From Candidatus Iainarchaeum sp. (GTDB taxonomy: Archaea > Iainarchaeota > Iainarchaeia > Iainarchaeales > 1-14-0-10-31-34), in assembly GCA_040755695.1 (NCBI GenBank), contig JBFMAK010000003.1, positions 101,879 through 165,878 on the forward strand: 64,000 bases of DNA. The letters are read 5' to 3'. The translations under genes and the position numbers were made by a program. Below the pieces are notes generated by a model, which searched no databases, had not been told where the DNA came from, and was given only the letters and a program-made list of their open reading frames with translations. How positions within the stretch are numbered: position 1 is the stretch's first letter; each line of letters opens with the position of its first letter. Positions 11,062 to 46,055 of the stretch are shown here, piece after piece.

Positions 11062-13833
11062 ATGGCTTTGAATGCAATAACAATTATAGGCGCAGGACCT
11101 GTTGGGTTAAAGACAGCAATAGAGTTAAAGAAGGAAGGCTGGGACCCAAAAGTAATAGAAGAACACACTGAAATTGGGGTTCCAGAAAACTGTTCAGGCC
11201 TCATAAGCGTTTCAGGAGTAAAAGAAACAAAATTAGACGTAGAAGACATTACAGTCAACAAAGTCAAAGGCGCAATAATCAAAGCGCCTAATGGAATTGA
11301 ATTAAAAATAGAGAGAAGCAGACCAGTGGCATATGTTATAGAAAGAAAGAAGTTAGACAAAAAGTTTTATGCCGAAGCCCTCAAAAAAGGAATTGAGGTA
11401 AGGACAGAGACAAGGCTCATAGACCTAAGGAAAGACACCTTATTCCTGCAGTTCAGGCAGAGAGGCGAAATGATGAAAACAGAGCTTCTCATAGGAGCAG
11501 ACGGCGTGAACTCAAAAATAAGAAAATTAATGAATTTAGGCGCGAACCCAGAGCACTTTGTCCTCACAACGCAAGTGAGAGCAAAAGGCTCATTCAACAA
11601 AGACTTCGTGGAATTAAGTTTTGGAGAACAGTACAAAGGATTCTTTGCGTGGACAATTCCAGAGAGCAGTACAACAGCAAGGATTGGGGTTGGAGTAAAG
11701 CCAGGCATGAACCCAAAAACTGCCCTTCAGAAATACATGAATGGAATGAAAGTAGAAGTATTAAGCGAAAGCTCTTCACTGATTCCAATAGGAAAGCCCC
11801 TGAGAGAAATTTCAACAGAAAAAATTCTTTTACTGGGAGACGCTGCCTTTCAAACAAAAGCAACAAGCATTGACTATGAAGAGCCAATAATAATATTAGA
11901 AAACGGTCTGATTAAGACTGTTAGGATAGGAGAATTAATAAATAATGAAATGAAAAAAAACGAGAACAATATAAAAACTATCACTGGAAGCCCTGAAATA
12001 AAGCTATTGGAACTAAAAAAAGAAATTAATTCTTTTTCTCCAATGAAAAATGGCTCAGAACCCAAATTTAGAAAAATAGCAAACATTCTAAAACATTCAA
12101 TAAAAGAAGACTTGTATGAAATTATTCTCGAAAAAGGCTATAGAATAAAAGCAACTGAATCACACAGCATAATTACTTTGGGGCAAAAACAACTTGAAGA
12201 AAAGAAGGTTTCAGAACTAAAAGCAAACAAAGACCATTTATTAATGTGCACACGCCTGCCAAACAATGAAATACTAAAAGAAATAAACATCATTGAATTT
12301 ATTTTAAGAGAAAAACCAGAATTAATCCCCTTAATTAGAGTTAAAGGGGGAAGAAAATACATTTTTTCAAAACAAAGTGAAGTACCCAAAAATTTGTTGA
12401 CAGCTTACTGGTATGAAGATTCAATTCCATTAAAAGTTTTTGTTGAAAAAGGTATAATACCAAAAGATGCAAGAATAAGTTACTTAAAATCAGGTTTAAA
12501 AATAAAAAACGGGCTTCAAATCACGCCGGAATTATGTAGGCTGTTAGGGTATTATGTTGCAGAAGGCAGTTGTAAAAAAGGAAAAAATATTAGTTTGACT
12601 TTCGGCAAACAAGATATTGAGAACGGAATAGTAGAAGACACAATTAAATGTATTCAATATGTTTTTGAATTTAAACCAACAAAATATCAGTACAAAAAAA
12701 ACCCTTTAACCAAAAAGATTTCAGCTGTAACAATAACCTTTGGTGGTTCATTACTTTCAGAACTTTTCTCTAATATTTTGAAAGGCGGAAGAAGCGCCAA
12801 AACAAAAGAAGTACCTTTCATTATTTTTAATGTGCTAGAACACCTTAAAATTGAATTCTTAAAGGGTTATCTCAACGGCGATGGAACAATAAGAATAAGA
12901 GAATCAAGTAAAAGAAAGAACTGGAATGCAGAAATTTCTTGCAAGACGGTAAGCAGAAAACTTGCAAGTGACTTAATAACCCTTTCTCTTCAGATGGGAA
13001 TGCTTCCAAGTATAGAAGAGTTTTCTGCTAAAGAAAGAAAAATCTATGGCAAAAAAATTGTTGAAAGCAATGGTTACAAAGTGGCTTTCTCAAAAAAAGA
13101 GGACTTACTGAGACTTTCAGAAGTTTTCCCAAAAAAAACAAGTGAGTTAATTGGTTTTCTTAATGAAATTAAATCAAAATCAACTTCGGGCATACCAAAA
13201 GAATATTTTGCCTTCACTTCAAACCAAAAATATGCTACAGAACTAATAGAAGAATTTGGGCCATCAATATATACAGCTTACAATAAACTTGATTCTAAAA
13301 GAGTTTCCTTTGCAATGCAAAAAATGATAACAAAAAACGAAAGAATTCAATTAATACAAAATTTAATTCAATCAAATATTGCAGTATTTAAAATAAAAGA
13401 AATAAGAAAAGTTAAACCAACCAATAACGAAGTTTTTGATGTTCACATCCCAGAAACAAACATGTTTGTTGGAGGGCTTGGAGCAATACTCCTTCATAAT
13501 ACAGGCGGGGGCATTATTACAGGAATGATGGCAGCAGAAGCAGCAGTAAAGACAATAAGCAATTACTACAAGAAAAAAAAGCCTTTAACTGAATACAGCA
13601 AACACTTAAGCCATTTAAACAAGGAATTAGAATTGCACTGGAGGATAAGAAAATACTTGAATTCACTGAACGACAAGCAATTGAACGAACTGTTCATCAA
13701 ACTAAAGAAAGCAAGAATTGAAGAATTCCTTGCAGAGCACGGCGACATGGACAGGCCCTCAAAATTCATGGGCAAAATCCTTACAACCCCAAGGCTGTGG
13801 AGCCTGGCACCATTAGCATTAAAGCTCAGGTGA
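11062..13833 (+). CDS. Geranylgeranyl reductase (FAD-dependent, archaeal lipid saturation) interrupted by an intein
   Basis: IIGAGPVG FAD dinucleotide motif and ELLIGADGVNSKIR motif. The GGR signature GDAAxxxxPxTGGGI is split as GDAAFQTKAT | intein | TGGGI. Confidence 0.85.
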   Translation: MALNAITIIGAGPVGLKTAIELKKEGWDPKVIEEHTEIGVPENCSGLISVSGVKETKLDVEDITVNKVKGAIIKAPNGIELKIERSRPVAYVIERKKLDKKFYAEALKKGIEVRTETRLIDLRKDTLFLQFRQRGEMMKTELLIGADGVNSKIRKLMNLGANPEHFVLTTQVRAKGSFNKDFVELSFGEQYKGFFAWTIPESSTTARIGVGVKPGMNPKTALQKYMNGMKVEVLSESSSLIPIGKPLREISTEKILLLGDAAFQTKATSIDYEEPIIILENGLIKTVRIGELINNEMKKNENNIKTITGSPEIKLLELKKEINSFSPMKNGSEPKFRKIANILKHSIKEDLYEIILEKGYRIKATESHSIITLGQKQLEEKKVSELKANKDHLLMCTRLPNNEILKEINIIEFILREKPELIPLIRVKGGRKYIFSKQSEVPKNLLTAYWYEDSIPLKVFVEKGIIPKDARISYLKSGLKIKNGLQITPELCRLLGYYVAEGSCKKGKNISLTFGKQDIENGIVEDTIKCIQYVFEFKPTKYQYKKNPLTKKISAVTITFGGSLLSELFSNILKGGRSAKTKEVPFIIFNVLEHLKIEFLKGYLNGDGTIRIRESSKRKNWNAEISCKTVSRKLASDLITLSLQMGMLPSIEEFSAKERKIYGKKIVESNGYKVAFSKKEDLLRLSEVFPKKTSELIGFLNEIKSKSTSGIPKEYFAFTSNQKYATELIEEFGPSIYTAYNKLDSKRVSFAMQKMITKNERIQLIQNLIQSNIAVFKIKEIRKVKPTNNEVFDVHIPETNMFVGGLGAILLHNTGGGIITGMMAAEAAVKTISNYYKKKKPLTEYSKHLSHLNKELELHWRIRKYLNSLNDKQLNELFIKLKKARIEEFLAEHGDMDRPSKFMGKILTTPRLWSLAPLALKLR
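11866..13500 (+). other. Intein (545 aa) with LAGLIDADG homing-endonuclease domain, inserted in GGR
   Basis: Starts with Ser (SIDYEE...). Block B TESHSIIT, LAGLIDADG blocks LLGYYVAEGS and LKGYLNGDGT, and terminal ...VFDVHIPETNMFVGGLGAILLHN followed by +1 Thr (TGGGI). Confidence 0.8.
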
Positions 13834-22303: not shown

Positions 22304-23779
22304 TTGCACGCAAAGGAAAGAATTGAAGAAAGAGAGAAAAGAGAAACTGAAAGGCTTTTAGGCTTCAGGACAAGAAAAATAAAGAAAGAATTAATCCGCA
22401 AATTTCTGCTTAAAACTGATTCTATTGAATTGATTGAATTAAAAAACAGGCAGAAAATATACTTCCTCAAAGAATTCCCGGAGCTCTCGCTCGAAGAAGC
22501 AGAACTAGTGAAAGAGACAGTGGAAGAATTCCAGGCAAAAGAAGGCAGAGGAGAAGAAAAGAACTTGGCAAAAGAATTCAATTCCTACTGCAGGAGAAAC
22601 CTAATTGAATTAGACAGGGAACAAAAGAACTACCTGTACAAGCTGATAGAATCAATTGCATTCGGTTTCGGGCCATTAAACGCAATTCTTGCAGACGACA
22701 GCATAGAAGAAGTAAGCCTGGCAGGCTTAAGCGCAAGAAATCCAGTGCGCGTGTTCGAGAAAAGCCAAGGATGGATTGAAACCAACTTATATTACTCATC
22801 AGAGCAGACAGTCAAGGACTTAGTGAACAAGATGGCTAGAAAGATAGGGAGAAGGCTTTCAATGCAGACACCAAAAATAAATGCTGTCCTGCCAGACGGC
22901 TCAAGATTGAATGCAACAATAAAGCCTGTATCTTTTACCGGTCCAAGCTTTACTATAAGAAAATTCAGGGAAGAGCCTTTCACCCCATTAGACCTCATAA
23001 GAAACAATACCTTTACAGCAGAATTAATGGCCTTTACCTGGCTGGCACTGGAATCAGATGCAAGCATTGTGGTTGCAGGAAACACAGGCTCAGGAAAAAC
23101 TACCACATTGAATTCCCTCTTCAGTTTTGTTCCAAAAAACGAGAGAATAATTGCAGTAGAAGAAACCCCAGAAATAAAACTGCCTCACAGGCACTTAATC
23201 AAATTAAATACAATTGAAAGCCTTGGAATAGGAATGCAGGAACTTATAACAGACACACTGAGAATGAGGCCTGACAGGATAATTGTAGGGGAAATAAGAA
23301 GCAGGGAAGAAATAAACGCATTCATTGACACAATGCTCGCAGGACAAGGAAAGGGAAGCTATGCAACATTTCACGCGCAAAGCTCGCAGGAAGCAGTAAC
23401 AAGAATGAAAAATTACGGGATAATAGACCTAGACCTCCAATCAATTGACCTCATGCTAATACAGAAGAGATGGACTCAAGTAAACCTGAAGAAAAAACAG
23501 AGAAAGGAGACAAGGAAAATAATTGAAGCAAGCGAAATTCTATTGCAGGAGGGCAAGCTGAAGCTCAACAAATTATACGAATTCAATTACAAGAAAAACG
23601 AATTAGAGAAAAAAAGCCACGGCATTAAAGCAATGCAGAAGATAATGAACTGCTTGGGCTTAAGCAAAAGGAAAGCAGAAAAAGAAATAAAAAGAAGGGA
23701 AAAAATGCTCAAAAAAATGCTTGCAGAAAAATACAGCTTGAAGGAATTCTTTGAAAGAATAAACCAAGAAATGCAGTGA
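22304..23779 (+). CDS. Type IV pilus/Tad-like secretion ATPase (FlaI/TadA/CpaF, VirB11 superfamily)
   Basis: Walker A VVAGNTGSGKTT, Asp box and His box (RIIVGEIRS...ATFHA). TTG start preceded by AGAGGGAG RBS. Confidence 0.85.
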   Translation: MHAKERIEEREKRETERLLGFRTRKIKKELIRKFLLKTDSIELIELKNRQKIYFLKEFPELSLEEAELVKETVEEFQAKEGRGEEKNLAKEFNSYCRRNLIELDREQKNYLYKLIESIAFGFGPLNAILADDSIEEVSLAGLSARNPVRVFEKSQGWIETNLYYSSEQTVKDLVNKMARKIGRRLSMQTPKINAVLPDGSRLNATIKPVSFTGPSFTIRKFREEPFTPLDLIRNNTFTAELMAFTWLALESDASIVVAGNTGSGKTTTLNSLFSFVPKNERIIAVEETPEIKLPHRHLIKLNTIESLGIGMQELITDTLRMRPDRIIVGEIRSREEINAFIDTMLAGQGKGSYATFHAQSSQEAVTRMKNYGIIDLDLQSIDLMLIQKRWTQVNLKKKQRKETRKIIEASEILLQEGKLKLNKLYEFNYKKNELEKKSHGIKAMQKIMNCLGLSKRKAEKEIKRREKMLKKMLAEKYSLKEFFERINQEMQ

Positions 23780-23785
23780 GAAAAA

Positions 23786-24601
23786 ATGAAAATTGAAGAA
23801 GAAAAAGAAAAAATTTTGCTTGAAACACAAAAAAACCTTGAGAAAGCAAGGATAAACAAAAACGCAGAAAAATACTGGAAGGAAATTATTGCTTATTCTT
23901 CAATTGCAACAATAATTGCCTGGATTACTGCAGCGCTTTTAACACAGGAAATAATATTGAGCGCAATCCTTGCATTCACGCTTCTTGTTCTCGGAATCGC
24001 CTTGGGATACTATTATCCCTTGCACAAAAAGAATTCGATTGCAGGAGAAATAGAGAAGGAACTGCCTTTCGCCTTAATGTCAATGGCTGTAGAATTGAAC
24101 ATGAACCTGCCCTTCGAGAAGGCATTGAAGAATGCATCAAAAAGGAATTATGGAATTCTTTCAAAAGAATTGGAGAGGGCAACAAGAGAGATTTCATTGA
24201 AAGGAGCAAGCATACAGGAAGCCTTACTGCACTTGAGCGAGAGAATTGACTCAAGAAACTTGAAGAGGAGCATTGCACACTTGGTGAGCGTGAACGAACA
24301 GGGAAGCAAGAACGAGAGAGGAGAGCCAATAAAAAGGATTGCAAAAGAGCTTCTCTCAAAGCAGAGGGCAGAAGCAAAAGAATTTTCTGGAAAATTGATA
24401 ATCCTCTCACTGCTCTTCATTGCAGTCTCAGCAATAATCCCTGCAATGTTCCTGGCATTTGTCTCAATAGGCTCAATGTTCCTTGCAATAGAATTCACTC
24501 CAATCCAGGTAATAATAATTTCAGTAGTAGTCTTCCCTGCAATAGACTTGGCAATACTCTACCTAGTAAAACTCAAGACTCCAGTCTTTCTGAGGGAATA
24601 A
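23786..24601 (+). CDS. T2SS-F domain membrane protein (TadB-like half of FlaJ)
   Basis: Polytopic membrane protein. The cytoplasmic helical domain ELPFALMSMAVELNMNLPFEKALKNA resembles T2SSF. Confidence 0.7.
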   Translation: MKIEEEKEKILLETQKNLEKARINKNAEKYWKEIIAYSSIATIIAWITAALLTQEIILSAILAFTLLVLGIALGYYYPLHKKNSIAGEIEKELPFALMSMAVELNMNLPFEKALKNASKRNYGILSKELERATREISLKGASIQEALLHLSERIDSRNLKRSIAHLVSVNEQGSKNERGEPIKRIAKELLSKQRAEAKEFSGKLIILSLLFIAVSAIIPAMFLAFVSIGSMFLAIEFTPIQVIIISVVVFPAIDLAILYLVKLKTPVFLRE

Positions 24602-24604
24602 AAA

Positions 24605-25540
24605 ATGAAAATCATTCCTTCATTCAATTCAATAATAGAATATTTTTTTGGGAAAAAAAGCAGGATAGAATTCGAGGAAATGCTGAAAGAGAATGAGTGC
24701 AAGAAAAATTTGGAAGGAATAATAAAAGAAAGCCTCTTGCACGGCGCAGTTGCAGCGACAATTCTTTTCTCAATTCTTATATTCCTTGAATTCCCTTTTT
24801 TTTACTCAATAATTTTCTCATTAACTGCATTCTTCGCGCCTTTAATCCTCCAATACTCTTTTCAACTGCTATTGTTTGAGAAAAGAAAAAGAGAAAAAGA
24901 AAGAATGGTTCCTGACCTGCTACTGCAGGCAAGCCTTTTTCCGAGAGGTACAGCAACAACAAAAATAATAAGCTACATGGCCAAAACAGAATTCGGCCTG
25001 CTCAGCAAGGAATTCAAAAAAGTCAATTCAGAGATAAGGAAAGGAGCATCAATAGAAAAAGCGCTTTCAAGGATGCAGCAGAGATGCAAGAGCAAGATCG
25101 TAGAGAGGGCAGCAGACCTTTTAATTCAAGGCCACTCAAGCGGGGCAGAAATGCACTCTGTGTTCAAGGAGACAGCAGAAGACGTCCTTGAAACGCAATC
25201 AATTATAAGGGAAAGGAATGCAACAACAACAATAGAAAAATACACTGTACTAATGGCAGCCGCAATAATAGTACCATTAATTTTAGGGTTGATTGTAGGG
25301 CTGATAGAAGGACTGAATTTCCAGGGCATTGCAGAGCTGAGCCTTGGATTGAGTTCAAAAGAGAGAAAGGCACTGCTTGAAGCAGCACTCACAGCAAACT
25401 TCTCATACATAATTGAATATTCCTTGATTGCCTCCATCTTCATTTCACACCATGAAGGCAACAAAAAGAAAGCAATAATTTACTCCCTTATACTAATCCC
25501 TGCAAGCATAATCACTTACACGATTGCAAGGGCATTGTGA
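24605..25540 (+). CDS. T2SS-F domain membrane protein (TadC-like half of FlaJ)
   Basis: Second T2SSF-like protein. It follows the first after a 4-nt gap, consistent with a split platform protein. Confidence 0.7.
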   Translation: MKIIPSFNSIIEYFFGKKSRIEFEEMLKENECKKNLEGIIKESLLHGAVAATILFSILIFLEFPFFYSIIFSLTAFFAPLILQYSFQLLLFEKRKREKERMVPDLLLQASLFPRGTATTKIISYMAKTEFGLLSKEFKKVNSEIRKGASIEKALSRMQQRCKSKIVERAADLLIQGHSSGAEMHSVFKETAEDVLETQSIIRERNATTTIEKYTVLMAAAIIVPLILGLIVGLIEGLNFQGIAELSLGLSSKERKALLEAALTANFSYIIEYSLIASIFISHHEGNKKKAIIYSLILIPASIITYTIARAL

Positions 25541-27802: not shown

Positions 27803-30800
27803 CTATTTCCTTTTTCTGTTTTTCCTGTAATGGCCATTAGAGAACTTCGATTGAATTAAAGAGAAAGAGAACAGTAAAAGGGAAATGAACAAAATTAACA
27901 TGATTGGGTTTTCTGGAAGCGAGGGCAGAGAGAAAGGCTGGTTCTGGCCTGTGCCAATGTTTACATTCATGTAATTTCCTCCTGCAGTGGATTTGACTTC
28001 CCCGTCAGGGCCAACCATTGTCTGTATGCCTTTCTGCCTGAATTCGTCGCTTAAAGGAAGCAGTTGAGCGTTCTCTGCATAATACAGTCCTTTTGTGGGG
28101 TCATACCAGAAAGCCCCATTCGCTCCCTGCATGCTGTTGAGCTGTTCTTTAGAGCCATTATATTCTAGGTAAGGCCTGCCATTCTCTGCACCGAAAGCAA
28201 AGTCGTGTGTTTTCCCGTCACTTGTTGCGACCTGGAATCCGTTAGGCGTAGACTTTATTGCATCAATTGGTTGGTCGTAAACCTTTCCTGTCTCCTTGTC
28301 AATTATTCTCATGTGTGGTATGCAGTCAGGAGGCAAGGCATAGAAAATATAACGCCTTTTGTCTGTGTCGAAAACCTGGTAAGGCCCGAATTTGGCCAGA
28401 GATTTATTGAATTGGGCTGCATCAAACTGCAGGGCAGGAGAATTAGGGTCTCCTAAAATATTTAGGTCAAATGCTGGCTCATCGCAGTCAGTCACAGGAT
28501 TCTTGTATGTTGTGGGCGTAACCTTTATTCCTTGAACGTCATTCTGGCTTAAAATGCCTTTCTCGTTGTGCTTGAGCCAGAAAATCAATTCATTTGTCTC
28601 AAGCTTGAATACTATTACCCCGTTCTTTAATTGAATGGATTCAAGCTTTCCTACATCAGGGTCGTTGTCAGCAGAGCCCAAAAGAAGAACCTGCCTGTTC
28701 GCGTAAATTTCAATTTTTGGGGCATTTTCTGAAACTTTTCTCGGAAGGCCGTCTGCAATAATTTTGTTTCCTGAAATAAAAATGTCCGGGTGAGAGTTAG
28801 TTATAACAGAAAGAACTGGTCCAAAAGCATCGCTCAAATTCTCTCCTGTCAATTCAATTCCTGTCTGCTCTTTTACTCCTTCCTTAATACAGTCTAATAC
28901 CTCATTGTTCTTTGCAATCAATTCGCTGTCCAATCCAATGCCAAAAATCAGAATGTTTGAATCATAAGGCAGCCCAAGCCTTGTGAGCGTGTTAGGAATT
29001 TCAATTGCAGGAATATTAGTGTTAATGGAAGAAAGCCTCACGTTATCCTCTGAGGTAATAACTGGCTGGCCGTTAGCTGAAAGCACTCCTGTTTCTTTAT
29101 TTAATTCAACTGAAAGATTCTTGTCCTTAACTACAGTCTTGCCTGAGGTAATATAGCTTGCAACAGAACTGTCTCCAGGGGCAATCCATAAATAGAAAAG
29201 CTTTGAGCCCGCAACAGCCCCATCATTATTTCCTGAAACATCCAATGTCGCCTGCACTAAATCATTATCTGCTGCACTCTTAGTTAATTGTCCGATTTGG
29301 TCTTTCACATTATTCATTGCATCCTGTGTTATGCCCCCAGCCCCATTAAAGAGAGCTTCAGCCTTGTCTTTAGCGCCTGCAACAAAGTCTGAAACCTTTT
29401 CAGTTGAAAGCTTCTGCACATCCTTGTCTGAAGCCTTCTGCTCTTCTTTGGGGGGAATAGAAAATTGGACGTAATAGCCTTCCTCTGTATCAATGCAGTC
29501 CTGAAGCCTTGAAGCAACCACAATCTGCTGCACTGCACTGGTGAAAATCCCTGTCATTCCAAATATAGCATAACTCAAGTTCTCAGTAATGCCTAATGCA
29601 GCGGCAGCGCCTGAAGGACCCAATTTTTTTGCCAAGCCAATACCAAAGAATGCTTCTTCTAATTTGTCAGTGCAGGTCGTCTTCTCTTTTATTGCTTTCT
29701 CCAAATCTACTGGCTCGGTTGTTGTGCTGTCCTCAGTCTTTCCATCCAAATTCATGTGATGGGCATAGCTTATAAGCATTGAGCCTTTCTTTTTTTCTTT
29801 TTCCGGGGTGTCCTCTAAAATGATTGATTTTTGGTCTCCAATAGACCTGAAGTTTGCATTAAAGAAGCCAGTCTTTGAGGTTACAGTTATACTGCAGGAG
29901 GCCCCGCAATCATCTTTTCCGTAAGAATAGAACGCAATGCTTCCAACTTTTGTCCTTAAACCTGCTTCTGGTTTTGTTAATTTATCGTAAGTTTCTTTTG
30001 CAGGATTGAATTTATCTGAAACAGTATTCAAAACCCATTTCCAGGGAAGACTGTTAATTATTCTGACAAACATGTCTCCTGTGTCTGATCCTTCATTGGC
30101 AAAAAAGTCAATGAAAGCGTCATCAAAGATTTTTCCTTCTTTTGTGCTGAACAGAACATAACGCCAGCTTGAAGGAAGCTGGTAAGCACTCAATTCCTTG
30201 AAGCCTGCTCCTTTTTTAGCCCACCAGTAAAGATAAGGATAGGCAGTCCATTTTAATGCCCCGCCCTTTGTAGAAAAATATGCCTTGAAGAGCTTTTCCT
30301 CTTCTTTCTGGAATTTGTCCAAAACAGAATAATATTTTTTGTTAGCCCAGTTATGCTCTATAAAGTCCTCGTAAAGCCAGTTAGTCATCTTGCTTGTCTT
30401 CTTTATCCTGTCCTGGATGTAGTCGCCTGAAATTTCCCCCATTCTCTTTGGCGTAAGGACGTCTTCAACCTCTCTCCCTGTTTCATCAAGATAGGTTGCA
30501 GGGCCCCATGTGCCGGACTTGTAAATCTTAATGTTTGCTGGATTCCTTGAAACAATGTAATCCACAGTGCTTTTGTCTACAGGAATGTACTTGTTGGGTT
30601 CAATTTCTGCTACAACCTGCCTTGAAAACTTTCCTTTCATCACAGACTCTTTTAACCCTGCACCATCCATTGTAACTTCAAGCGGACCAACATCTTTTAT
30701 CTGGTATAATTGAATGCCGTCTCCTTTCATCCTGTATCTCTTCCATCCCTGGAAACTTCCTGCAAAATCTTTTCCAAGACCACCATATTTTGGGTCTCCT

Positions 30801-32296
30801 TTAAAAGTGTACATTATGTTGTTGTAAACGCTTGGGTCTGAAGAAATCGGAATAAATGTTTTTGTTTCTTCATTGAAGACAGCCTTGTAAGTCATTCCTG
30901 TTCTCTCCTGGTTGGCTAAATAAACAGGAAAGTCAGAGCCTATAATGTCATCGTAATTCACTGCAAGCTTTGTAAGGCCTGTTCCCCTTTCAGCATAAGC
31001 CTGGGCAACCAGCTTTTCCTTCAATGCCCTCTGCTCTGCAGTGAGAGCTCCAGGAAATTGGTCGTCAATTTGCTTTAATGCATGCTTGAAGTCATCATCT
31101 ATTTGTTTTGCAGCGAACTCTTCGGCATTATTGAATCTTTTCAAGTACTTGAAGGTATTCATTGCGTGCTTTCTTTCTTCTAAGGTTTTCATTCTTTCAA
31201 ATAATCCTCCTGGAGCCCAGGCCTTGTTCCTGAAGTCAAAGGACCTGCTAGTGGAATACATTGACATGTCTCCTGTAGCCCACTTCCATTCTATTTCTCC
31301 TAAATCCCATCTCCTTATCTCTTTGGCAAAGGTGTATGCGTTTGCCTTGCCAAACCATTGCTCTGGGTCATAAAGCTTTCCCCTAATCTTTTTTGTTACA
31401 GCCCAGTTGTCCCAGTTGCCTCCTTCAGAGAGGAATGGAATCATGCCCCTTCTTCCGGCCATCCCAAAGAGTTTGAATGCCCTTCCAAGCAGGACAGGGC
31501 CTACATTGGAAATTACAATGTCCAAGGAAAACCAGGTGTTGAAGTGCTTGTCAAACATGGAGTAAACTGAAATGACGCAGGAAGAATTATTGCAGGTTGT
31601 GCCCATTGAAGCCTTTAAGGAATCAGTGGAAATATAATTGCTGATGAAGTTTCCTGGAATCCTTGAGGCAGTGACGAACTCAATTCCGTTCTGGTCTGCT
31701 TCAGGCGATTCAATGTAGTCCTTTAGCATCTGCTTTTTCTCTGCGTCCATGTTCAATTGCTGGTCGCCCTTGTTTGAAAACAATTCCTTCAGGTCATTCC
31801 AGGCGCTTTTTGTAGCGCCCTTAATGCCTTCGCCTGAATTCCTTAAGGAAAGCTTGTTTCCATTAAGGGCGCAGGAATTGGTGTCCTTGCATCTTGCAGC
31901 TCGCAGGGTGTCATCCAATAAAATTCCAATAGAAAATCCTCCGGTGTACCTGTAATCCATCAAATACTTTAATTCGGGTACATCCATTTTCTGGTTCGGC
32001 AATTCAATTTTTGCTGCCTGGTTAGAGTCAAGGTCTGTGAGCACAGCAGTATTATTATCCAGTTTATCCCTGTCAGCGATTGGAGGCATGCCAGAGCTTA
32101 ATTCTTGTCCTTGGAAGCCCTCCTTTAAAATCTTGTCCTTGAATAAGGCGACCTCCTCTGGAGTCAAAGAAGAGGTATTACAGGAAAAGCCTGTCATTCC
32201 CTCTTCAGGCGCAGCTGCCTCCTGCGCGTAAGAATAATAAGAGAACTGGGTTGAAAGCAGGAGAATTACAACCATCAAAACAAATTCTTTTTTCAT
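27803..32296 (-). CDS. Large secreted surface protein (1497 aa) with C-terminal TM anchor and basic tail
   Basis: Signal peptide MKKEFVLMVVILLLSTQFSYYSYA|QE. C-terminus ...PSLPENPIMLILFISLLLFSFSLIQSKFSNGHYRKNRKRK (motif, TM, then basic tail). Confidence 0.7.
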   Translation of the reverse strand: MKKEFVLMVVILLLSTQFSYYSYAQEAAAPEEGMTGFSCNTSSLTPEEVALFKDKILKEGFQGQELSSGMPPIADRDKLDNNTAVLTDLDSNQAAKIELPNQKMDVPELKYLMDYRYTGGFSIGILLDDTLRAARCKDTNSCALNGNKLSLRNSGEGIKGATKSAWNDLKELFSNKGDQQLNMDAEKKQMLKDYIESPEADQNGIEFVTASRIPGNFISNYISTDSLKASMGTTCNNSSCVISVYSMFDKHFNTWFSLDIVISNVGPVLLGRAFKLFGMAGRRGMIPFLSEGGNWDNWAVTKKIRGKLYDPEQWFGKANAYTFAKEIRRWDLGEIEWKWATGDMSMYSTSRSFDFRNKAWAPGGLFERMKTLEERKHAMNTFKYLKRFNNAEEFAAKQIDDDFKHALKQIDDQFPGALTAEQRALKEKLVAQAYAERGTGLTKLAVNYDDIIGSDFPVYLANQERTGMTYKAVFNEETKTFIPISSDPSVYNNIMYTFKGDPKYGGLGKDFAGSFQGWKRYRMKGDGIQLYQIKDVGPLEVTMDGAGLKESVMKGKFSRQVVAEIEPNKYIPVDKSTVDYIVSRNPANIKIYKSGTWGPATYLDETGREVEDVLTPKRMGEISGDYIQDRIKKTSKMTNWLYEDFIEHNWANKKYYSVLDKFQKEEEKLFKAYFSTKGGALKWTAYPYLYWWAKKGAGFKELSAYQLPSSWRYVLFSTKEGKIFDDAFIDFFANEGSDTGDMFVRIINSLPWKWVLNTVSDKFNPAKETYDKLTKPEAGLRTKVGSIAFYSYGKDDCGASCSITVTSKTGFFNANFRSIGDQKSIILEDTPEKEKKKGSMLISYAHHMNLDGKTEDSTTTEPVDLEKAIKEKTTCTDKLEEAFFGIGLAKKLGPSGAAAALGITENLSYAIFGMTGIFTSAVQQIVVASRLQDCIDTEEGYYVQFSIPPKEEQKASDKDVQKLSTEKVSDFVAGAKDKAEALFNGAGGITQDAMNNVKDQIGQLTKSAADNDLVQATLDVSGNNDGAVAGSKLFYLWIAPGDSSVASYITSGKTVVKDKNLSVELNKETGVLSANGQPVITSEDNVRLSSINTNIPAIEIPNTLTRLGLPYDSNILIFGIGLDSELIAKNNEVLDCIKEGVKEQTGIELTGENLSDAFGPVLSVITNSHPDIFISGNKIIADGLPRKVSENAPKIEIYANRQVLLLGSADNDPDVGKLESIQLKNGVIVFKLETNELIFWLKHNEKGILSQNDVQGIKVTPTTYKNPVTDCDEPAFDLNILGDPNSPALQFDAAQFNKSLAKFGPYQVFDTDKRRYIFYALPPDCIPHMRIIDKETGKVYDQPIDAIKSTPNGFQVATSDGKTHDFAFGAENGRPYLEYNGSKEQLNSMQGANGAFWYDPTKGLYYAENAQLLPLSDEFRQKGIQTMVGPDGEVKSTAGGNYMNVNIGTGQNQPFSLPSLPENPIMLILFISLLLFSFSLIQSKFSNGHYRKNRKRK

Positions 32297-36227: not shown

Positions 36228-36752
36228 TTATTTAACTAATCCCACAATGCAGCAGGTATCAGTATTATCTGGAGTAGCGCAATTGCAACCTGATACATCA
36301 ACGTCTTTTAGGAATGAGGTGTCTTCAAGGGAAGTTGATAATGCGTTGCCTTTGTCACAGTATGCTGCAAGGTATGCCTGCTTCTGGCCGCCGCCTGTAT
36401 ACATTATTGATTTTGCTGTTATAGTCCAATTAGGGGGCCCAAATGAACTTTCCCCAACCATACATAATTGGTCGGCAGTAATTAAACCTGATGCCTCTGC
36501 AGTTGCTTTTACATTTATTTGATCATTATTTGAAAACGTTACAGCCTTTGTCCTGTAATCATTATACCTGTTATTGTAAGCCTGCTTTAGTATTTCAACT
36601 GACTCCTTTTTCGGGTCGCCCTGACCTATAGGGCCAATCAATCCAAGGATGTTTAAAAGCAGGGTGAGAATTACGACTGCAATTACTGCAGAAATCAATA
36701 ACTTAAATACAGAGAATTCCTGCCCTTTAGAATTCATTTTTGATTTCACCAT
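36228..36752 (-). CDS. Pilin-like protein with class III signal peptide
   Basis: MNSKGQ|EFSVFKLLISAVIAVVILTLLLNILG. Confidence 0.6.
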   Translation of the reverse strand: MVKSKMNSKGQEFSVFKLLISAVIAVVILTLLLNILGLIGPIGQGDPKKESVEILKQAYNNRYNDYRTKAVTFSNNDQINVKATAEASGLITADQLCMVGESSFGPPNWTITAKSIMYTGGGQKQAYLAAYCDKGNALSTSLEDTSFLKDVDVSGCNCATPDNTDTCCIVGLVK

Positions 36753-36789: not shown

Positions 36790-37239
36790 TTAGTCCTTGG
36801 GGAAGTCCATGCCGTACAATGCAATGCAGCAGAATTCAGGGCAGGCACTGCTCTCGCAGGAGACAGAGCCCTGGGAGTAGGCGCTGTAAGAGAAACTGAT
36901 TGCACTAATTATGTCTGGGTCATCGCATTTCACGAAGACATTTGTTTTGATTGCCTGGTTTATTTGAATTGACGAAACTTCACTGGAATTGCTTACAGTG
37001 AATGCACTGCTTTTAGAGGAATTGAATTTAATGCATTTCTCGTCAATGTTTGCTTTTGAGCCTAACTGCTTTGAATTGAAAGAACCTTTAGGAATTGAAA
37101 TTCCTGCGATTGCTTTTGTTGTGCCGTCAGGGCTCTTTGATGCGTGCCCTATTCCTTCAGTGATCCTCTGAAGGCTTATATCATAGTTCACTTGTTCGAG
37201 GTAATTAATGATTCCGACAATAATGAAGAGCACAGCCAA
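36790..37239 (-). CDS. Pilin-like protein; the class III signal peptide is encoded upstream of the annotated TTG start with no canonical start codon
   Basis: The in-frame upstream extension (to 37311) reads FRIKINSSGQ|EFEVFKVLIWGIIALAVLFIIVG, which sits immediately after the TGA stop of the platform gene in the same frame. Confidence 0.5.
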   Translation of the reverse strand: MAVLFIIVGIINYLEQVNYDISLQRITEGIGHASKSPDGTTKAIAGISIPKGSFNSKQLGSKANIDEKCIKFNSSKSSAFTVSNSSEVSSIQINQAIKTNVFVKCDDPDIISAISFSYSAYSQGSVSCESSACPEFCCIALYGMDFPKD

Positions 37240-37311
37240 AGCTATAATACCCCAAATAAGGACTTTGAAGACCTCGAATTCCTGGCCACTTGAATTAATC
37301 TTAATTCTAAA

Positions 37312-39687
37312 TCACCCTGTGAAAGTTCCTACAACGCTGTTCGCAACAATGATTGAGACAACAAAGATTACTGTGGCAATAGGCAGGGCTTTTCCAATAT
37401 TAATTTTTGCCAGAAGCCAGTTGTCCTCCTCGATTTTTGTGGTATAATAAGTCAAAATAATTACAATTTCAATGATGTATACTGCAACAATCAAGGTGAA
37501 CTGCGCTGGAGTTACAAGCTGGGCGAAAGACTCTGCAGTGAACTTCAAGGAAGAAAGCCCTGCAGTGAAATTGCCTACGCCTGAAGCAGTAACACCCGGA
37601 GAGGTAACAGAAGGCATTTCAGAAAACCTCTCGAAAGTGCCTTGCGAAATAATTGACCCTAAAGTCATTATCACAATCTTCTGGAGTGCAGTGGTAATCC
37701 CCAAAACAATTGGCGCAACAAATACAGCCATTGTCTTCATTGTTGAGGTTATCTCCTGCACTAAAATTGAAAGCATCTTGCTGACCTTCTCTGAATTATT
37801 CAATTGAAGGGAAAGGGAGATCAAAGTCCGAGCAGAAACCTCTGCGCCTAATTGAACAGAATCAACCAACAGCCTCATGGAAGAACGAATTATGGCAGAA
37901 GGATTATTCTTGAGTGAACCGTAATTCGGGTCAAATACAGCTAATTCCAAAGGCATTCCAAGCATGTTAATATTATCTATCGTCCTCCCAAACAAGGTGT
38001 TGGAAATCTTGTATGAAGGAAGGAATTCCTTTGCATGCCTCAAGGCTTCCTCTACAGGCTTGTTTTCTCCAAGCCTTGAAGCAAGAACATACAATGAGTC
38101 CTTGAACTCTGACTCCATTTGAATTGCATCCAACTGCACCTTCCTCTTATAGATATTGCTGTAATACAAGAAAACAAAACAGAGCAAACTGAAAGTAATC
38201 AATGAACCGAAAATTAAATTGTAGGGTGTAACATCATTCTTGGGCTCGCTGAAAAACTGTGTTCTCTCCAATGCAACCCTTGCAGAAGCCTTTTCACTGG
38301 ACTCACCTGAATTAATTAATTGCTGGTATAAAACCCCATTTTCGCCATAGTAATTGTTTTCCTTTCCTGCCTCTAAGTAAACGCACTCTTCGGTCTTGTC
38401 CAGGGCAAGGAAAACCATTATCCCCTCAGATTTAATATTTACAGTCTTGCAGTCATAGGAAATGACAGGGCCCCAGAAGCCTGTGCCGGCATTCTTCTGA
38501 ATTACAATCCCGTTCAAGTGAAGAAAGAAACTTGTTCCAGCGCCTAATAAAAGAACCAAAAACAGTACTGCCCTTACGTCCAAAAAAGAATTACCTAATT
38601 TCATCTTCCATTTAGGTGGCACAAGAGGGCTTCCTTCAGGAATAATTGGAGGCTCATAAGTAGGGGGCCTGCTCTTCAACACATTCCTGGCGAAAATGAA
38701 TGCAGCAGCAGGAATTATGATATTGTAAATCAAAATAATTATCTCAGGCCTTGCAAGGGCCTGCCCAGAAAAAGCACTTCCAACAGGAAGAATAATAATT
38801 AAAGTTAAAGGGAGAAGGACGCCCAAATAGAACAACATTACAGTAGGCTGGCTTAATTCGCGGGCATACTGCTCCATCTTGTTCCTGATTGATTCAAGAG
38901 TATTATCCATTGTCTTGTCAAGCAACTGATACCTTTTTGCCTCTGTGTCCTCTAACACTGAAGCCCTAATCATCATCAAAGATGTCTTGAATTCCTCGCT
39001 GAACTTACCCCACTTGTAAGCCATGTCATCCAATGCCTCGCTCAAGGTATTAAAGATGCCTAACTGGACATCCCAGATGATCTTCTTAAAGTCTTCTGCT
39101 ATTTTCCCCCTTCCGTGCTCTGCAGCAAACTCAACGCTCTTCTCCAGGTTGGGGACAAGCTTCATTGACATTATCATGTAGCCCATTATTTCAGGCACAT
39201 AAGTCAAAGCCTTCACCTGTTCTGTCTTTGCTACATTCAAAGCATACTTCTGCATGAAATTCACTATAGCGTAAACCATGAGAATTATTGGAATGAAAAT
39301 ATAAGCAATAGCCAGCTCCTGCATTCCAGTGAAAGAAGCAACATAAGAAGGCAAAGGAGACATCAATGCAACCACAATTAAAATGAAGCCAAAAATTATT
39401 GCTGCAAGTAATGTGAGCTTGAATGCAGCAGCCAGTTCCTCTGCACTCAAATTCCATCCCAAAAAATCGATTGCCTCCTTGTACTTCTGAGAGAATTTAG
39501 CTCCCTTTCCAAGAGAAGGAAAACTCTTATGGCAGGACTTGCAGAACCTCACATATCCAGGGTCAACCTTCCTTACAAGCCTTGTCTCCCCTCTTTCGCC
39601 GAACTCCTTTGAATAAGTTATGCCCTTATACAATTCCCCTGGAGAGACATCCTTTCCTTGCGCCTCATAAACAAATTTTCTTGGCAT
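37312..39687 (-). CDS. Type IV pilus/archaellum-like platform membrane protein (FlaJ/TadC/PilC family, two T2SSF-like repeats) with N-terminal zinc ribbon
   Basis: 791 aa, many TM helices, two T2SSF-like cytoplasmic domains and an N-terminal CKSCHKSF Cys cluster. Confidence 0.7.
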   Translation of the reverse strand: MPRKFVYEAQGKDVSPGELYKGITYSKEFGERGETRLVRKVDPGYVRFCKSCHKSFPSLGKGAKFSQKYKEAIDFLGWNLSAEELAAAFKLTLLAAIIFGFILIVVALMSPLPSYVASFTGMQELAIAYIFIPIILMVYAIVNFMQKYALNVAKTEQVKALTYVPEIMGYMIMSMKLVPNLEKSVEFAAEHGRGKIAEDFKKIIWDVQLGIFNTLSEALDDMAYKWGKFSEEFKTSLMMIRASVLEDTEAKRYQLLDKTMDNTLESIRNKMEQYARELSQPTVMLFYLGVLLPLTLIIILPVGSAFSGQALARPEIIILIYNIIIPAAAFIFARNVLKSRPPTYEPPIIPEGSPLVPPKWKMKLGNSFLDVRAVLFLVLLLGAGTSFFLHLNGIVIQKNAGTGFWGPVISYDCKTVNIKSEGIMVFLALDKTEECVYLEAGKENNYYGENGVLYQQLINSGESSEKASARVALERTQFFSEPKNDVTPYNLIFGSLITFSLLCFVFLYYSNIYKRKVQLDAIQMESEFKDSLYVLASRLGENKPVEEALRHAKEFLPSYKISNTLFGRTIDNINMLGMPLELAVFDPNYGSLKNNPSAIIRSSMRLLVDSVQLGAEVSARTLISLSLQLNNSEKVSKMLSILVQEITSTMKTMAVFVAPIVLGITTALQKIVIMTLGSIISQGTFERFSEMPSVTSPGVTASGVGNFTAGLSSLKFTAESFAQLVTPAQFTLIVAVYIIEIVIILTYYTTKIEEDNWLLAKINIGKALPIATVIFVVSIIVANSVVGTFTG

Positions 39688-44283: not shown

Positions 44284-44853
44284 ATGCCCAAAAAAATCAA
44301 AATTAAAAAGGAAAAAAAAAGGGGAAAAAAGAAAGGTTTTTTCAGCATTGAAAGAGAGGACGCACTCAAGGGCGGAAAATTTGTTTTACGAATCCTGCTC
44401 TTTTATTTGATACTGCTCGCGCTCTCATATTTTCTTGTTCCATTAGGTTTACTGGAAGAAACAATTGCTTCTCACACTAATTATTTTTTGGGCCTTGCAG
44501 GAATCAAAGGCGAAGTAATAAAAGCAGTGAATGAAAGCCCTGCTGGAATTGAATTCCAGAAATTCAATGTAGAAATAAATTACCTGTGCACTGGCCTCCT
44601 CGAGCTCACAGTGCTCTTGGCTGCAATAATTGCAACGCCTTACATAAGTTCAAGGAAAAAAATTTTTGGTGTGATGGGAGCCATAATTGTCTCCTATATA
44701 TTCAATTTAGCCAGAATTGTCTTCACGATAACTGCAATAAGCTCTTACAGCATAAAGACAGCAGAACTGACCCATGACGTGCTTTTCAGGATTTCGCTCT
44801 TCATTATAGTGGCAGGCTACTATTTCGTTTGGCTCAAAATTGTCTCACATTGA
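44284..44853 (+). CDS. Small polytopic membrane protein, possibly exosortase/archaeosortase-family
   Basis: Conserved Cys in YLCTG and Arg residues in NLARIV and FRISLF at a spacing reminiscent of exosortase/archaeosortase catalytic residues. Weak. Confidence 0.3.
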   Translation: MPKKIKIKKEKKRGKKKGFFSIEREDALKGGKFVLRILLFYLILLALSYFLVPLGLLEETIASHTNYFLGLAGIKGEVIKAVNESPAGIEFQKFNVEINYLCTGLLELTVLLAAIIATPYISSRKKIFGVMGAIIVSYIFNLARIVFTITAISSYSIKTAELTHDVLFRISLFIIVAGYYFVWLKIVSH

Positions 44854-44858
44854 AAAGA

Positions 44859-45467
44859 TTATTTCTGCAGCAACAGGAAGGCCTTGGCATTGTATAAAAT
44901 AATCCTTTCCTTTTGAACTTGCACAGCAAAAGAGGCGGCTTTAATTAATTGCCTTTTGAATTCGTTTTCTTCGATAATTAAAGGGGTTGCCTCCCTTCCA
45001 ATATTCAAGCTGATTGTCTGAAACAACCTGATTATTCTGTTTTTTTGGGTTGAATCTGCTTTTTTGACAATAAATAAAATATCAATGTCCGATGCTCTGG
45101 TTAAATGCCCTCTCGCAATTGACCCAAACAAAACAATTGAAACAAGATTGCTTCCAAAAATTTTTTTGAAGGAGTCAATTCTATCAATCAATTCTTTAAC
45201 TACTGCAAACTTTGAGGTAGCAGATAATTTTTCCTGCTCTTCAACCAACTCAAAAGCAGATATACTCAAAGGATTGTCTAGCACTGGAAAAAGCTGCCTA
45301 ATGTTCCCAACCTGCTTTGAATAAATAAGGTTTGCTTCCTCCAATTCATTCAAGATGCCTTTAATATCTCTAAGTGAACCAACCAATTTCATTAAAGCGT
45401 TAACGTGAATTTCGGGGTTCCTGGCAACCTCCGCAAGAATTCTTTGCCTTGACTTTAAAATCAACAT
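44859..45467 (-). CDS. Minimal nucleotidyltransferase (MNT) with N-terminal wHTH, HEPN-MNT module component
   Basis: LFGSIARGHLTRASDIDILFIV is a pol-beta-type NTase motif (GS...DxD). Confidence 0.7.
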   Translation of the reverse strand: MLILKSRQRILAEVARNPEIHVNALMKLVGSLRDIKGILNELEEANLIYSKQVGNIRQLFPVLDNPLSISAFELVEEQEKLSATSKFAVVKELIDRIDSFKKIFGSNLVSIVLFGSIARGHLTRASDIDILFIVKKADSTQKNRIIRLFQTISLNIGREATPLIIEENEFKRQLIKAASFAVQVQKERIILYNAKAFLLLQK

Positions 45468-45473
45468 ATTTAA

Positions 45474-46055
45474 TCACTTCAACAATTCATCAATTTCTTT
45501 AACGAAATTAAAAGCATTTCTCCCAATTGTTCTGACATCATCTTCCTTGACCTTAGTCACAGTATACAAAACACTGTTCCTGAACTGCCTGACTTTTCCA
45601 AGCAGATCTATTTCTTCATCAAAACTTTTTCTTGCGCTGCCAAACCCTTTAACAAACCTTTCGCCATGCAGTATCTCAAGCATCAAGGCAATAGTACAGA
45701 CGTGGTCCTTGGCGGCTTGACCCAAAAAATGAGAAGTAAAAGCCTTGGCTGCCATGTACATGCCAGCATAATAAGCGATAATTGCCCAATCAAGAAAATT
45801 GTCTGATTCAAAAGATTCTGCAGTCTGCAAATGATAATGCGCTTTAGCCAAAAAGGTTTTAGCGTCTTCCTTGGTGAATCTCTGAATTCTCTTTCTTTTA
45901 AAACATTCACTCAAAACCCTTTTCACTGCCCTTAAAGATTTAGGAATCTTTGAGTCCACGTCAACAAAACCCATAAAAACAACACCGCCTGCAAAAATAC
46001 ATATAATCATATGCAAAAATACATATAAAAGATTTTCGGGTGCCTTAAAAAGCAT
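45474..46055 (-). CDS. HEPN-domain protein (partner of MNT)
   Basis: All-helical protein next to the MNT gene, with a C-terminal RQFRNSVLYT-type segment. The pairing is typical of HEPN/MNT toxin-antitoxin-like modules. Confidence 0.55.
   Translation of the reverse strand: MLFKAPENLLYVFLHMIICIFAGGVVFMGFVDVDSKIPKSLRAVKRVLSECFKRKRIQRFTKEDAKTFLAKAHYHLQTAESFESDNFLDWAIIAYYAGMYMAAKAFTSHFLGQAAKDHVCTIALMLEILHGERFVKGFGSARKSFDEEIDLLGKVRQFRNSVLYTVTKVKEDDVRTIGRNAFNFVKEIDELLK

Follow-up and report, generated by a model that had tools for sequence, protein, structure and literature searches.

The stretch of DNA analyzed in this work (referred to here as the window) comprises 64,000 nucleotides of contig JBFMAK010000003.1 from Candidatus Iainarchaeum sp. 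(assembly GCA_040755695.1), an uncultured archaeon; its G + C content is 39%, and its proteins match a metagenome-assembled genome (MAG) of Candidatus Diapherotrites (Iainarchaeia, DPANN). A pilus-like type IV operon is located on the minus strand of the window, in which the gene for a T2SSE-type ATPase is followed by that for a 791 amino acid (aa) T2SSF-type platform protein and then by those for a series of small proteins whose N-termini resemble pilins. The first of these pilin genes lacks a canonical start codon, and the same is true of its orthologs in the two other lineages of its clade. We favor, with moderate confidence, the interpretation that translation of this gene starts at an AUU codon (37305-37303), that the ribosomes are directed to it by a Shine-Dalgarno (SD) motif and that its translation is coupled to termination on the platform gene. 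AUU starts, translational coupling and archaeal pilins are each already known; what the data best support here is that the clade as a whole has, as a derived trait, exchanged the start codon of its first pilin gene for ATT, behind a strong SD motif that overlaps the platform stop.

Absence of a Canonical Start Codon in the First Pilin Gene

The platform open reading frame (ORF) ends in ...GTFTG followed by TGA (37314-37312, minus strand), and the frame after this stop codon reads TTT AGA ATT AAG ATT AAT TCA AGT GGC CAG GAA TTC GAG GTC..., the translation of which is FRIKINSSGQEFEVFKVLIWGIIA. The original prediction for this region held that the pilin frame is open directly behind the TGA of the 791-aa platform gene, that a class III signal peptide with its cleavage motif is encoded in this frame upstream of the TTG at which the pilin is annotated to start, and that no ATG, GTG, or TTG lies between the platform TGA and this signal. 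All of this is borne out by the sequence, and the cleavage motif is as in the downstream paralog and in approximately 160 related pilins. Its count of 19 upstream codons requires correction, as the open stretch between the platform TGA and the TTG at 37239 consists of 24 codons (72 nt, 37311..37240), none of which is an ATG, GTG, or TTG; the number 19 corresponds to the codons from the Asn of N-S-S-G-Q to the one preceding the TTG. The earlier work had also overlooked the SD motif over the stop codon and did not distinguish between the two ATT codons that are present in this frame. The N-terminal sequence of the window pilin, ...INSSGQEFEVFKVLI, has the same motif as the paralog, with an ATT in place of the ATG of the latter.

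Two orthologous lineages were recovered, one (L001) on a 212-kb ENA contig, showing 86% identity in the pilin, and the other (L002) from another ENA assembly, with 64% pilin identity. In-frame ATG, GTG, and TTG codons are absent from all three lineages, viz. the window (an NCBI MAG), L001 and its JGI counterpart L084, and L002. The L084 sequence is 100% identical to L001 and does not constitute an independent witness; it was the only further member of the clade found in a scan of the JGI data, and a query with the C-terminal part of the platform protein gave nothing useful. The window and L001 have the same ATT...ATT arrangement at an overall DNA identity of 88.7%.

The sampled relatives consist of 80 species-level loci that contain the platform protein (748 kb of related loci in all); the first pilin was located in each of them, and its synteny with the ATPase and platform genes is kept in the 80 loci. 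The usual start layout of the first pilins in these relatives is M-N-x-x-G|Q, with a modal position of the start four codons before the cleavage Gly. The start codon is mostly ATG, while TTG is used in L011, L012, L026, L034, L035, and L036, and GTG in L023, and it frequently overlaps or abuts the platform stop codon (ATGA, TGATG, TTGA, TGA-ATG, TAA-ATG). When all pilin-like N-termini from the 748 kb are considered, 156 of 163 have a canonical start no more than 35 codons ahead of the cleavage Gly, and in 75 it is placed exactly four codons upstream. The exceptions, where no canonical start is present nearby, are the window clade, L067, L066, L086, and the third pilin of L063. In the nearest outgroups of the window clade (L083, L003, L005, L006, and L010; 61-65% platform identity) the start is ATG throughout, and hence the loss of the start codon is a derived characteristic that is specific to this clade; as it is common to the whole clade, it is also old. 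The comparison with orthologous loci, which had been suggested earlier as a means of refuting the anomaly, therefore gave a divided result: the close orthologs share both the missing start and the conserved signal region, whereas the distant ones (65% platform identity or less) start with an ordinary ATG, TTG, or GTG.

Evidence that the Region Upstream of the TTG is Coding

Within the 19 codons that run from the Asn up to, but not including, the TTG, 10 synonymous and three non-synonymous changes separate the window from L002, so that the proportion of synonymous sites which differ (pS) is 0.83 and that of non-synonymous sites (pN) is 0.067 (pN/pS 0.08). For the remainder of the pilin gene the same comparison yields a synonymous divergence (dS) of 1.3-1.7 and a non-synonymous divergence (dN) of 0.24-0.27, corresponding to a dN/dS ratio of about 0.15-0.2. 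Judged from these substitution patterns, the 19-codon extension is constrained, in the pilin frame, at least as much as the remaining protein. Because the synonymous differences in this frame far exceed the non-synonymous ones, the stretch upstream of the TTG is, by this measure, clearly translated. Coding sequence under selection thus reaches upstream of every in-frame ATG, GTG, or TTG, and it is bounded by the in-frame stop 24 codons upstream. The position of the platform C-terminus is the same in the relatives.

The extended window pilin aligns from end to end with the ATG-initiated first pilin of L003 (38% identity, E 4e-29). In this alignment residue 3 of the extended protein, which is encoded by the second ATT, lies opposite Met1 of the L003 pilin, and the same register between residue 3 and Met1 is seen in most of the 154 clusters of this family obtained from a library of 1.8 billion proteins. 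We judge the annotated TTG start to be wrong: the database entry loses the signal peptide and cuts the N-terminal helix in half.

Identification of the Gene as a Type IV Pilin

In the extended protein a short leader is followed by a hydrophobic helix (N-S-S-G|Q-EFEVFKVLIWGIIALAVLFIIVGIINYL) in the same register as in the 163 related N-termini, and, as is characteristic of archaeal type IV pilins, the neighboring genes encode an ATPase (PF00437) and a platform protein (PF00482). A basic residue at position -2 is not found in the window pilin, which has Ser at this position (NSSG|Q), whereas Arg is present in L001 and L002 (NSRG|Q) and Lys in the paralog; with a start at the first ATT, the window pilin would have a Lys at -6. 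Other members of the family also deviate at -2 (e.g., NQSG|Q and NEAG|Q), so that this is a soft feature. No match of the pilin to Pfam was detected. In the AlphaFold model, which is of low confidence overall (mean pLDDT 44.8), a helix (residues 8-56) is followed by six strands, and only the helix has pLDDT values above 70; this order would be in keeping with a pilin fold, in which a long N-terminal helix packs on a globular beta-sheet domain. Among the 38 window ORFs that were scanned, neither a prepilin peptidase (Peptidase_A24; PibD/FlaK/EppA) nor translation factors were found. Based upon its sequence and gene context, this gene of the Iainarchaeial type IV pilus-like operon is thus predicted to encode its conserved first pilin. 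The coordinates of the features described in this work are given in Table 1.

Table 1. Positions in the window of the first pilin gene, its sequence elements and the adjoining genes of the operon.
Feature	Position	Strand	Remarks
T2SSE-type ATPase gene, 761 aa	39733..42018	-	PF00437
Platform gene (T2SSF / FlaJ-TadC-like), 791 aa	37312..39687	-	PF00482, E 4.8e-06; stop TGA 37314-37312
SD-like motif GGTGAT (GGGTGAT with the preceding G) over platform stop	37311..37316	-	Also retained by L001 and L002
Proposed initiation codon ATT (AUU)	37303..37305	-	5 nt after GGTGAT, 6 nt after TGA
Second in-frame ATT, alternative start	37297..37299	-	Homologous to Met1, four codons before cleavage Gly
Revised pilin coding sequence, 171 aa + stop, given a start at the first ATT	36790..37305	-	End-to-end alignment with L003 first pilin
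Cleavage motif N-S-S-G|Q of the class III signal (Gly 37287-37285; Gln +1 37284-37282)	37282..37296	-	Motif x-N-x-x-G|Q in ~160 related pilins
Hydrophobic N-terminal helix of mature pilin, QEFEVFKVLIWGIIALAVLFIIVGIINYL	37198..37284	-	Kyte-Doolittle peak 3.17
Annotated TTG start (MAVLF..., 149 aa; NCBI P0001 / AB1467_05915)	37237..37239	-	Judged wrong
Paralogous second pilin, ordinary ATG, begins MNSKGQEFSVFKLLI	36228..36737	-	GGTGA 8 nt upstream

The Shine-Dalgarno Motif and the Candidate AUU Start Codon

The SD-like motif at the junction of the two genes is made up of the end of the last Gly codon of the platform gene, the TGA and the T that follows it, and it is complementary to the usual 3' end of archaeal 16S rRNA. 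The platform and pilin genes are co-directed, and the distances from the platform TGA to the first and second ATT are 6 nt and 12 nt, respectively. The junction reads TGA TTT AGA ATT in the window, TGA TTT GGA ATT in L001, and TGA TGG ATT ATT in L002. Of the in-frame codon positions, only that of the first ATT (37305-37303) is ATT in each of the three lineages, and the arrangement GGGTGAT-N5-ATT is retained in each of them, although the flanking codons vary and L002 has a 9-nt indel. An identical layout, GGGTGAT-N5-TTG, is present in L034 and L036, where the TTG is the accepted start at position -4. SD motifs are in use in this genome, with about 12 of 47 ORFs in the window preceded by one of 5 nt or longer at an aligned spacing of 7-12. 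The first ATT, with an aligned spacing of 9, falls inside this range, whereas the second, which is located 11 nt after GGTGAT and has an aligned spacing of 15, falls outside of it; the position of the second ATT, which is homologous to Met1, is also occupied by CTT in L002.

The motif GGTGAT occurs four times on both strands of the 64-kb window, compared to 18.4 +/- 4.4 occurrences expected from dinucleotide-preserving shuffles, which represents an approximately 4.6-fold depletion. Two of these four copies are present at gene junctions of the pilus operon, one of them at the platform stop; the second has an ATG 3 nt behind it. As the motif is rare overall and half of its copies are at operon junctions, it appears to be avoided elsewhere and to be meaningful where it is present. 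In addition, 622 strong SD sites in the 748 kb of related loci were scanned for cases in which such a site is followed by a non-canonical codon and a long ORF that lacks a nearby canonical start, and the sole recurrent candidates were the ATT sites of this gene. Other motifs complementary to the 16S rRNA are also depleted in the window (one GTGATC and 11 AGGTGA, each versus about 27 expected from base composition), which suggests that stray SD sites are avoided in it.

These observations are best explained by the following scenario. An ancestral ATG, located four codons ahead of the G|Q site, has been lost in the window clade, and translation most likely starts at the AUU at 37305-37303, where the strong GGGUGAU motif over the platform UGA would position the ribosomes. 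Many of the initiating ribosomes may be those terminating on the platform UGA 6 nt upstream (translational coupling by termination-reinitiation). The resulting precursor would be Met-K-I-N-S-S-G|Q-E-F-E-V-F-K..., from which a 7-residue leader would be removed by the class III signal peptidase, and the mature pilin would be identical to that obtained from an ATG start. Due to the weak start codon, the output of pilin is expected to be low and dependent upon translation of the platform gene.

Several considerations weigh against this interpretation. As the three lineages represent a single clade, shared ancestry and the constraint imposed by the Gly codon and stop (GGG TGA) could in part account for why the ATT and the SD motif are conserved. 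Wherever its efficiency has been measured, AUU initiates very poorly, and this sits oddly with a conserved, and possibly major, first pilin. Further, no other ATT-start candidate was detected in the window or the related loci, and there is therefore no general relaxation of start-codon choice in this organism. Lastly, given the CTT in L002 at the position homologous to Met1, at most one of the two ATT positions can be essential.

Alternative Explanations

Of the three explanations offered by the original prediction, initiation at an ATT is the one best supported by these results, while stop-codon readthrough is unlikely and a sequencing error is refuted. The suggestion that an error in sequencing or assembly deleted an ordinary ATG is plausible a priori for any MAG, and an apparent 1-nt shift in a T run does place the ATG of the third pilin in L063 out of frame. 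However, independent NCBI, ENA, and JGI assemblies of the three lineages agree with each other, and in the window and L001 the interval from the stop codon to the signal is devoid of ATG in all frames. Since three separately assembled lineages lack the start, this explanation is refuted as far as sequence data allow, and we consider it almost certainly incorrect. A related possibility, an ATG in another frame combined with a frameshift, was also rejected; neither the window nor L001 has such a codon, and the only one in L002, an out-of-frame ATG that overlaps the TGA, opens an ORF of eight codons and was judged to be coincidental. The purifying selection on the extension argues against two other explanations, ruling out that translation begins solely at the TTG, that the gene is dead and that the extension is a non-coding spacer. 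That the internal TTG (GTG in the orthologs) is the real start of a protein without a signal peptide was the choice of three gene callers (P0001-P0003), and both of these codons are legitimate starts in archaea. This is nonetheless very improbable, as the 19 codons under selection contain the invariant N-x-x-G|Q-x-F motif of the family, a protein made from the TTG would start halfway into the helix with only about 13 hydrophobic residues left, and no conserved SD motif precedes this codon (TGGGGT, TGGGGC, and TGGGCT in the three lineages). The choice made by the gene callers carries no weight here, because they also truncate relatives in which an upstream TTG is present (L085 and L087). There is similarly little likelihood that the loss of its ATG has silenced the gene and left it a pseudogene without a start, replaced in function by the downstream paralog. 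The canonical start is indeed gone, AUU is intrinsically weak, and a second pilin with both an ATG and an SD motif is located immediately downstream; but in three lineages whose synonymous sites have reached saturation the ORF remains unbroken, with a dN/dS ratio of about 0.15-0.2, the N-terminus is even more constrained, and the start-less state, being clade-wide, is old.

Readthrough of the platform UGA, either occasional or programmed, would yield a platform-pilin fusion from which the prepilin peptidase could free the pilin at G|Q. The pilin is in frame with the platform stop in all three lineages despite the 9-nt indel in L002, the stop codon is TGA in each, and the leaders of 46-48 aa that precede G|Q in L066 and L086 indicate that leader length is flexible. 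The in-frame relationship, however, follows automatically if the SD motif includes the TGA and the start is at the preferred spacing (TGA-T + 5 nt = frame 0), and all three pilin frames are found among the relatives. No platform homolog of fusion length was seen among the 120 listed of 330 matches (721-812 aa). The TGA codon is an ordinary stop in the window, where it terminates 13 of 47 long ORFs, and no stable RNA structure that could promote readthrough or hide a start is predicted at the junction (minimum free energy z = -0.07). A global reassignment of TGA was rejected based upon the same count, together with the presence of ORFs of up to 2631 aa that are open under table 11. The topology of the platform protein also argues against a fusion. 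Its hydropathy profile shows nine hydrophobic segments and an internal repeat (a domain plus three transmembrane segments, twice), and, with both T2SSF domains cytoplasmic, the C-terminus is predicted to lie outside the cell. In a fusion the cleavage site would consequently be left outside and the globular domain in the cytoplasm, with the pilin helix running from outside to inside in an inverted orientation. Readthrough in general is thus improbable, and there is only a slim chance that it takes place at a functional rate, so that the pilin is delivered as a C-terminal extension of the platform protein in the form of a covalent platform-substrate precursor. Initiation at some other non-canonical site or by another mechanism, viz. 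at the second ATT, by reinitiation after a mini-ORF, or through a recoding event, is less improbable, although we regard it as rather doubtful. The second ATT (37299-37297) has in its favor its alignment with Met1 of most homologs, against which stand the CTT in L002 and the unfavorable SD spacing noted above. With regard to a mini-ORF, a GTG over the platform stop (GTGA; window 37306-37316 on the minus strand, L001:5918-5932, and L002:325-354) opens a reading frame of two, four, and nine sense codons, respectively, that terminates at an in-frame ATT or immediately ahead of one in each lineage; mini-ORFs of such size are expected by chance at the G + C content of the window, and their occurrence in this AT-rich sequence is probably fortuitous.

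Comparison with Known Systems and Significance

AUU-initiated genes known from bacteria include infC and pcnB of Escherichia coli, and the AUU of infC is part of the autoregulatory loop of initiation factor IF3. The window pilin resembles these genes in that a near-cognate AUU is conserved instead of AUG in a clearly expressed gene with an SD motif before it, and in them the weak AUU keeps the output low or regulatable. It differs from them in that it is a pilin gene of a DPANN archaeon, with initiation of the aIF type, and that its AUU is located 6 nt past where the upstream gene's stop codon lies. ATT is a weak but measurable start, with an efficiency of about 0.3% of that of ATG in E. coli (PMC10666635). 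A review of initiation in archaea gives AUG, GUG, and UUG as the sole starts (PMC7531240), while in ribosome profiling of Haloferax volcanii about 30% of the putative alternative initiation sites were near-cognate and were set aside (PMC7261190). Termination-reinitiation in H. volcanii and E. coli needs overlaps or very short gaps of about 10 nt or less between the genes, and its efficiency is reduced by 40-60% at 13-14 nt and abolished at 22-23 nt (PMC10666635). Similar to the coupled gene pairs described by Huber et al. (2019, PMC6728339; 2023, PMC10666635), the platform and pilin genes are co-directed, with a 6-nt gap and an SD motif in the end of the upstream gene, and in relatives this gene pair has classical coupled junctions such as ATGA and TGATG. 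In contrast to the present case, the published pairs use ATG, GTG, or TTG, and ATT was merely suggested there for odd overlaps of -5.

In its short leader, G|Q site and hydrophobic helix of about 25 residues, the protein resembles the Epd pilins of Methanococcus (KG|Q) and the PibD substrates of Sulfolobus, and it shares with archaeal type IV pilins the adjoining T2SSE ATPase and T2SSF platform genes and the presence of paralogous pilins in a row. Unlike archaeal type IV pilins in general, it has Ser at -2 where Lys or Arg is usual, a match to Pfam is lacking, and a canonical start is absent. The first pilins of L003, L010, L034, and L036 are orthologous to it, are found at the same place behind the platform gene and have the same N-terminal motif; they start with ATG, TTG, or GTG exactly four to five codons before the Gly, whereas the window clade has ATT or CTT and 2-5 extra upstream codons.

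If the AUU is used, as we infer, this gene would provide an example of a conserved, evolutionarily maintained start other than AUG, GUG, or UUG in an archaeon, in which a very weak start codon is tied to a strong SD motif and an abutting stop codon. Such an arrangement suggests a simple way by which the synthesis of the pilin could be held strictly dependent upon, and sub-stoichiometric to, that of the platform protein. Of more immediate practical value is the correction of annotations that hide the signal peptide. Gene callers cut the window pilin and several of its TTG-start relatives inside the N-terminal helix, and due to this truncation, finders that are based upon signal peptides are expected to miss the conserved first pilin of these DPANN pilus loci.

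Other Pilins with Unusual or Misannotated N-termini

In a lineage unrelated to the window clade (L067:6300-6345), the first pilin also lacks a canonical start and has an ATA (gATAGta) at the position that in its relative L073 is occupied by the ATG of a stop/start overlap (ATGA). Its N-terminus reads I-V-F-E-K-G|Q; this case is known from one genome only, so that an error is possible. The change from ATG to ATA in an ATGA-type overlap suggests that the tightly coupled junctions of this pilin family tolerate AUH starts. The first pilins in L066:6298-6500 and L086:1330-1480 have an ATG beside the platform stop and leaders of 46-48 residues. The length of these is accounted for by an in-frame GC-rich insertion or duplication just before G|Q, with a 30-nt repeat at positions 1337 and 1403 of L086, and the family thus seems to tolerate long leaders. 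In the third pilin of L063 (L063:8384-9019), the ATG (ATG GAT TTC...) is shifted by a single base relative to the I-S-Q-R-G|Q-E-S-A-V-F... frame, which is due to an apparent 1-nt indel in a TTT run that may be either an assembly error or a real frameshift.

Misannotation of the N-terminus seems to be common in this pilin family. The first pilins of L085 (1465-1503) and L087 (1452-1503) are truncated by the gene callers at an internal Met of the helix despite a TTG at the platform stop (tTTGAat; GTGATCtgaaaTTG). Other truncated members from the library of 1.8 billion proteins that were considered as additional cases of a missing start proved to be annotation artifacts, P0196 and P0204 being missed TTG starts and P0187 having an ATG and a 48-aa leader. 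Within the window itself, the starts of the longest ORFs for the second pilin (ATG 36752, MVKSKM...) and the third pilin (TTG 36001, MGEREM...) are probably wrong, as the ATGs at 36737 and 35986 on the minus strand yield the M-N-x-x-G|Q leaders that are typical of the family.

Additional Features of the Window

A second type IV filament set is present on the plus strand of the window, consisting of a T2SSE ATPase (22304..23779) and two short T2SSF platform proteins (23786..24601 and 24605..25540). The window also contains three very large ORFs of 1497, 2631, and 2545 aa, at positions 27803-32296 on the minus strand and 46155-54050 and 55907-63544 on the plus strand, respectively; the first of these comes after the row of pilins and has no match in Pfam. 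Just upstream of the pilus operon, a gene for an archaeosortase/exosortase-like membrane protein (44284..44853) adjoins a nucleotidyltransferase-HEPN pair (44859..45467 and 45474..46055). Lastly, the pilus ATPase gene of L001 (1-3441) carries an intein (Intein_splicing and LAGLIDADG domains), whereas that of the window is without one, and an intein is instead found in the window in a FAD-binding protein (11062..13833).

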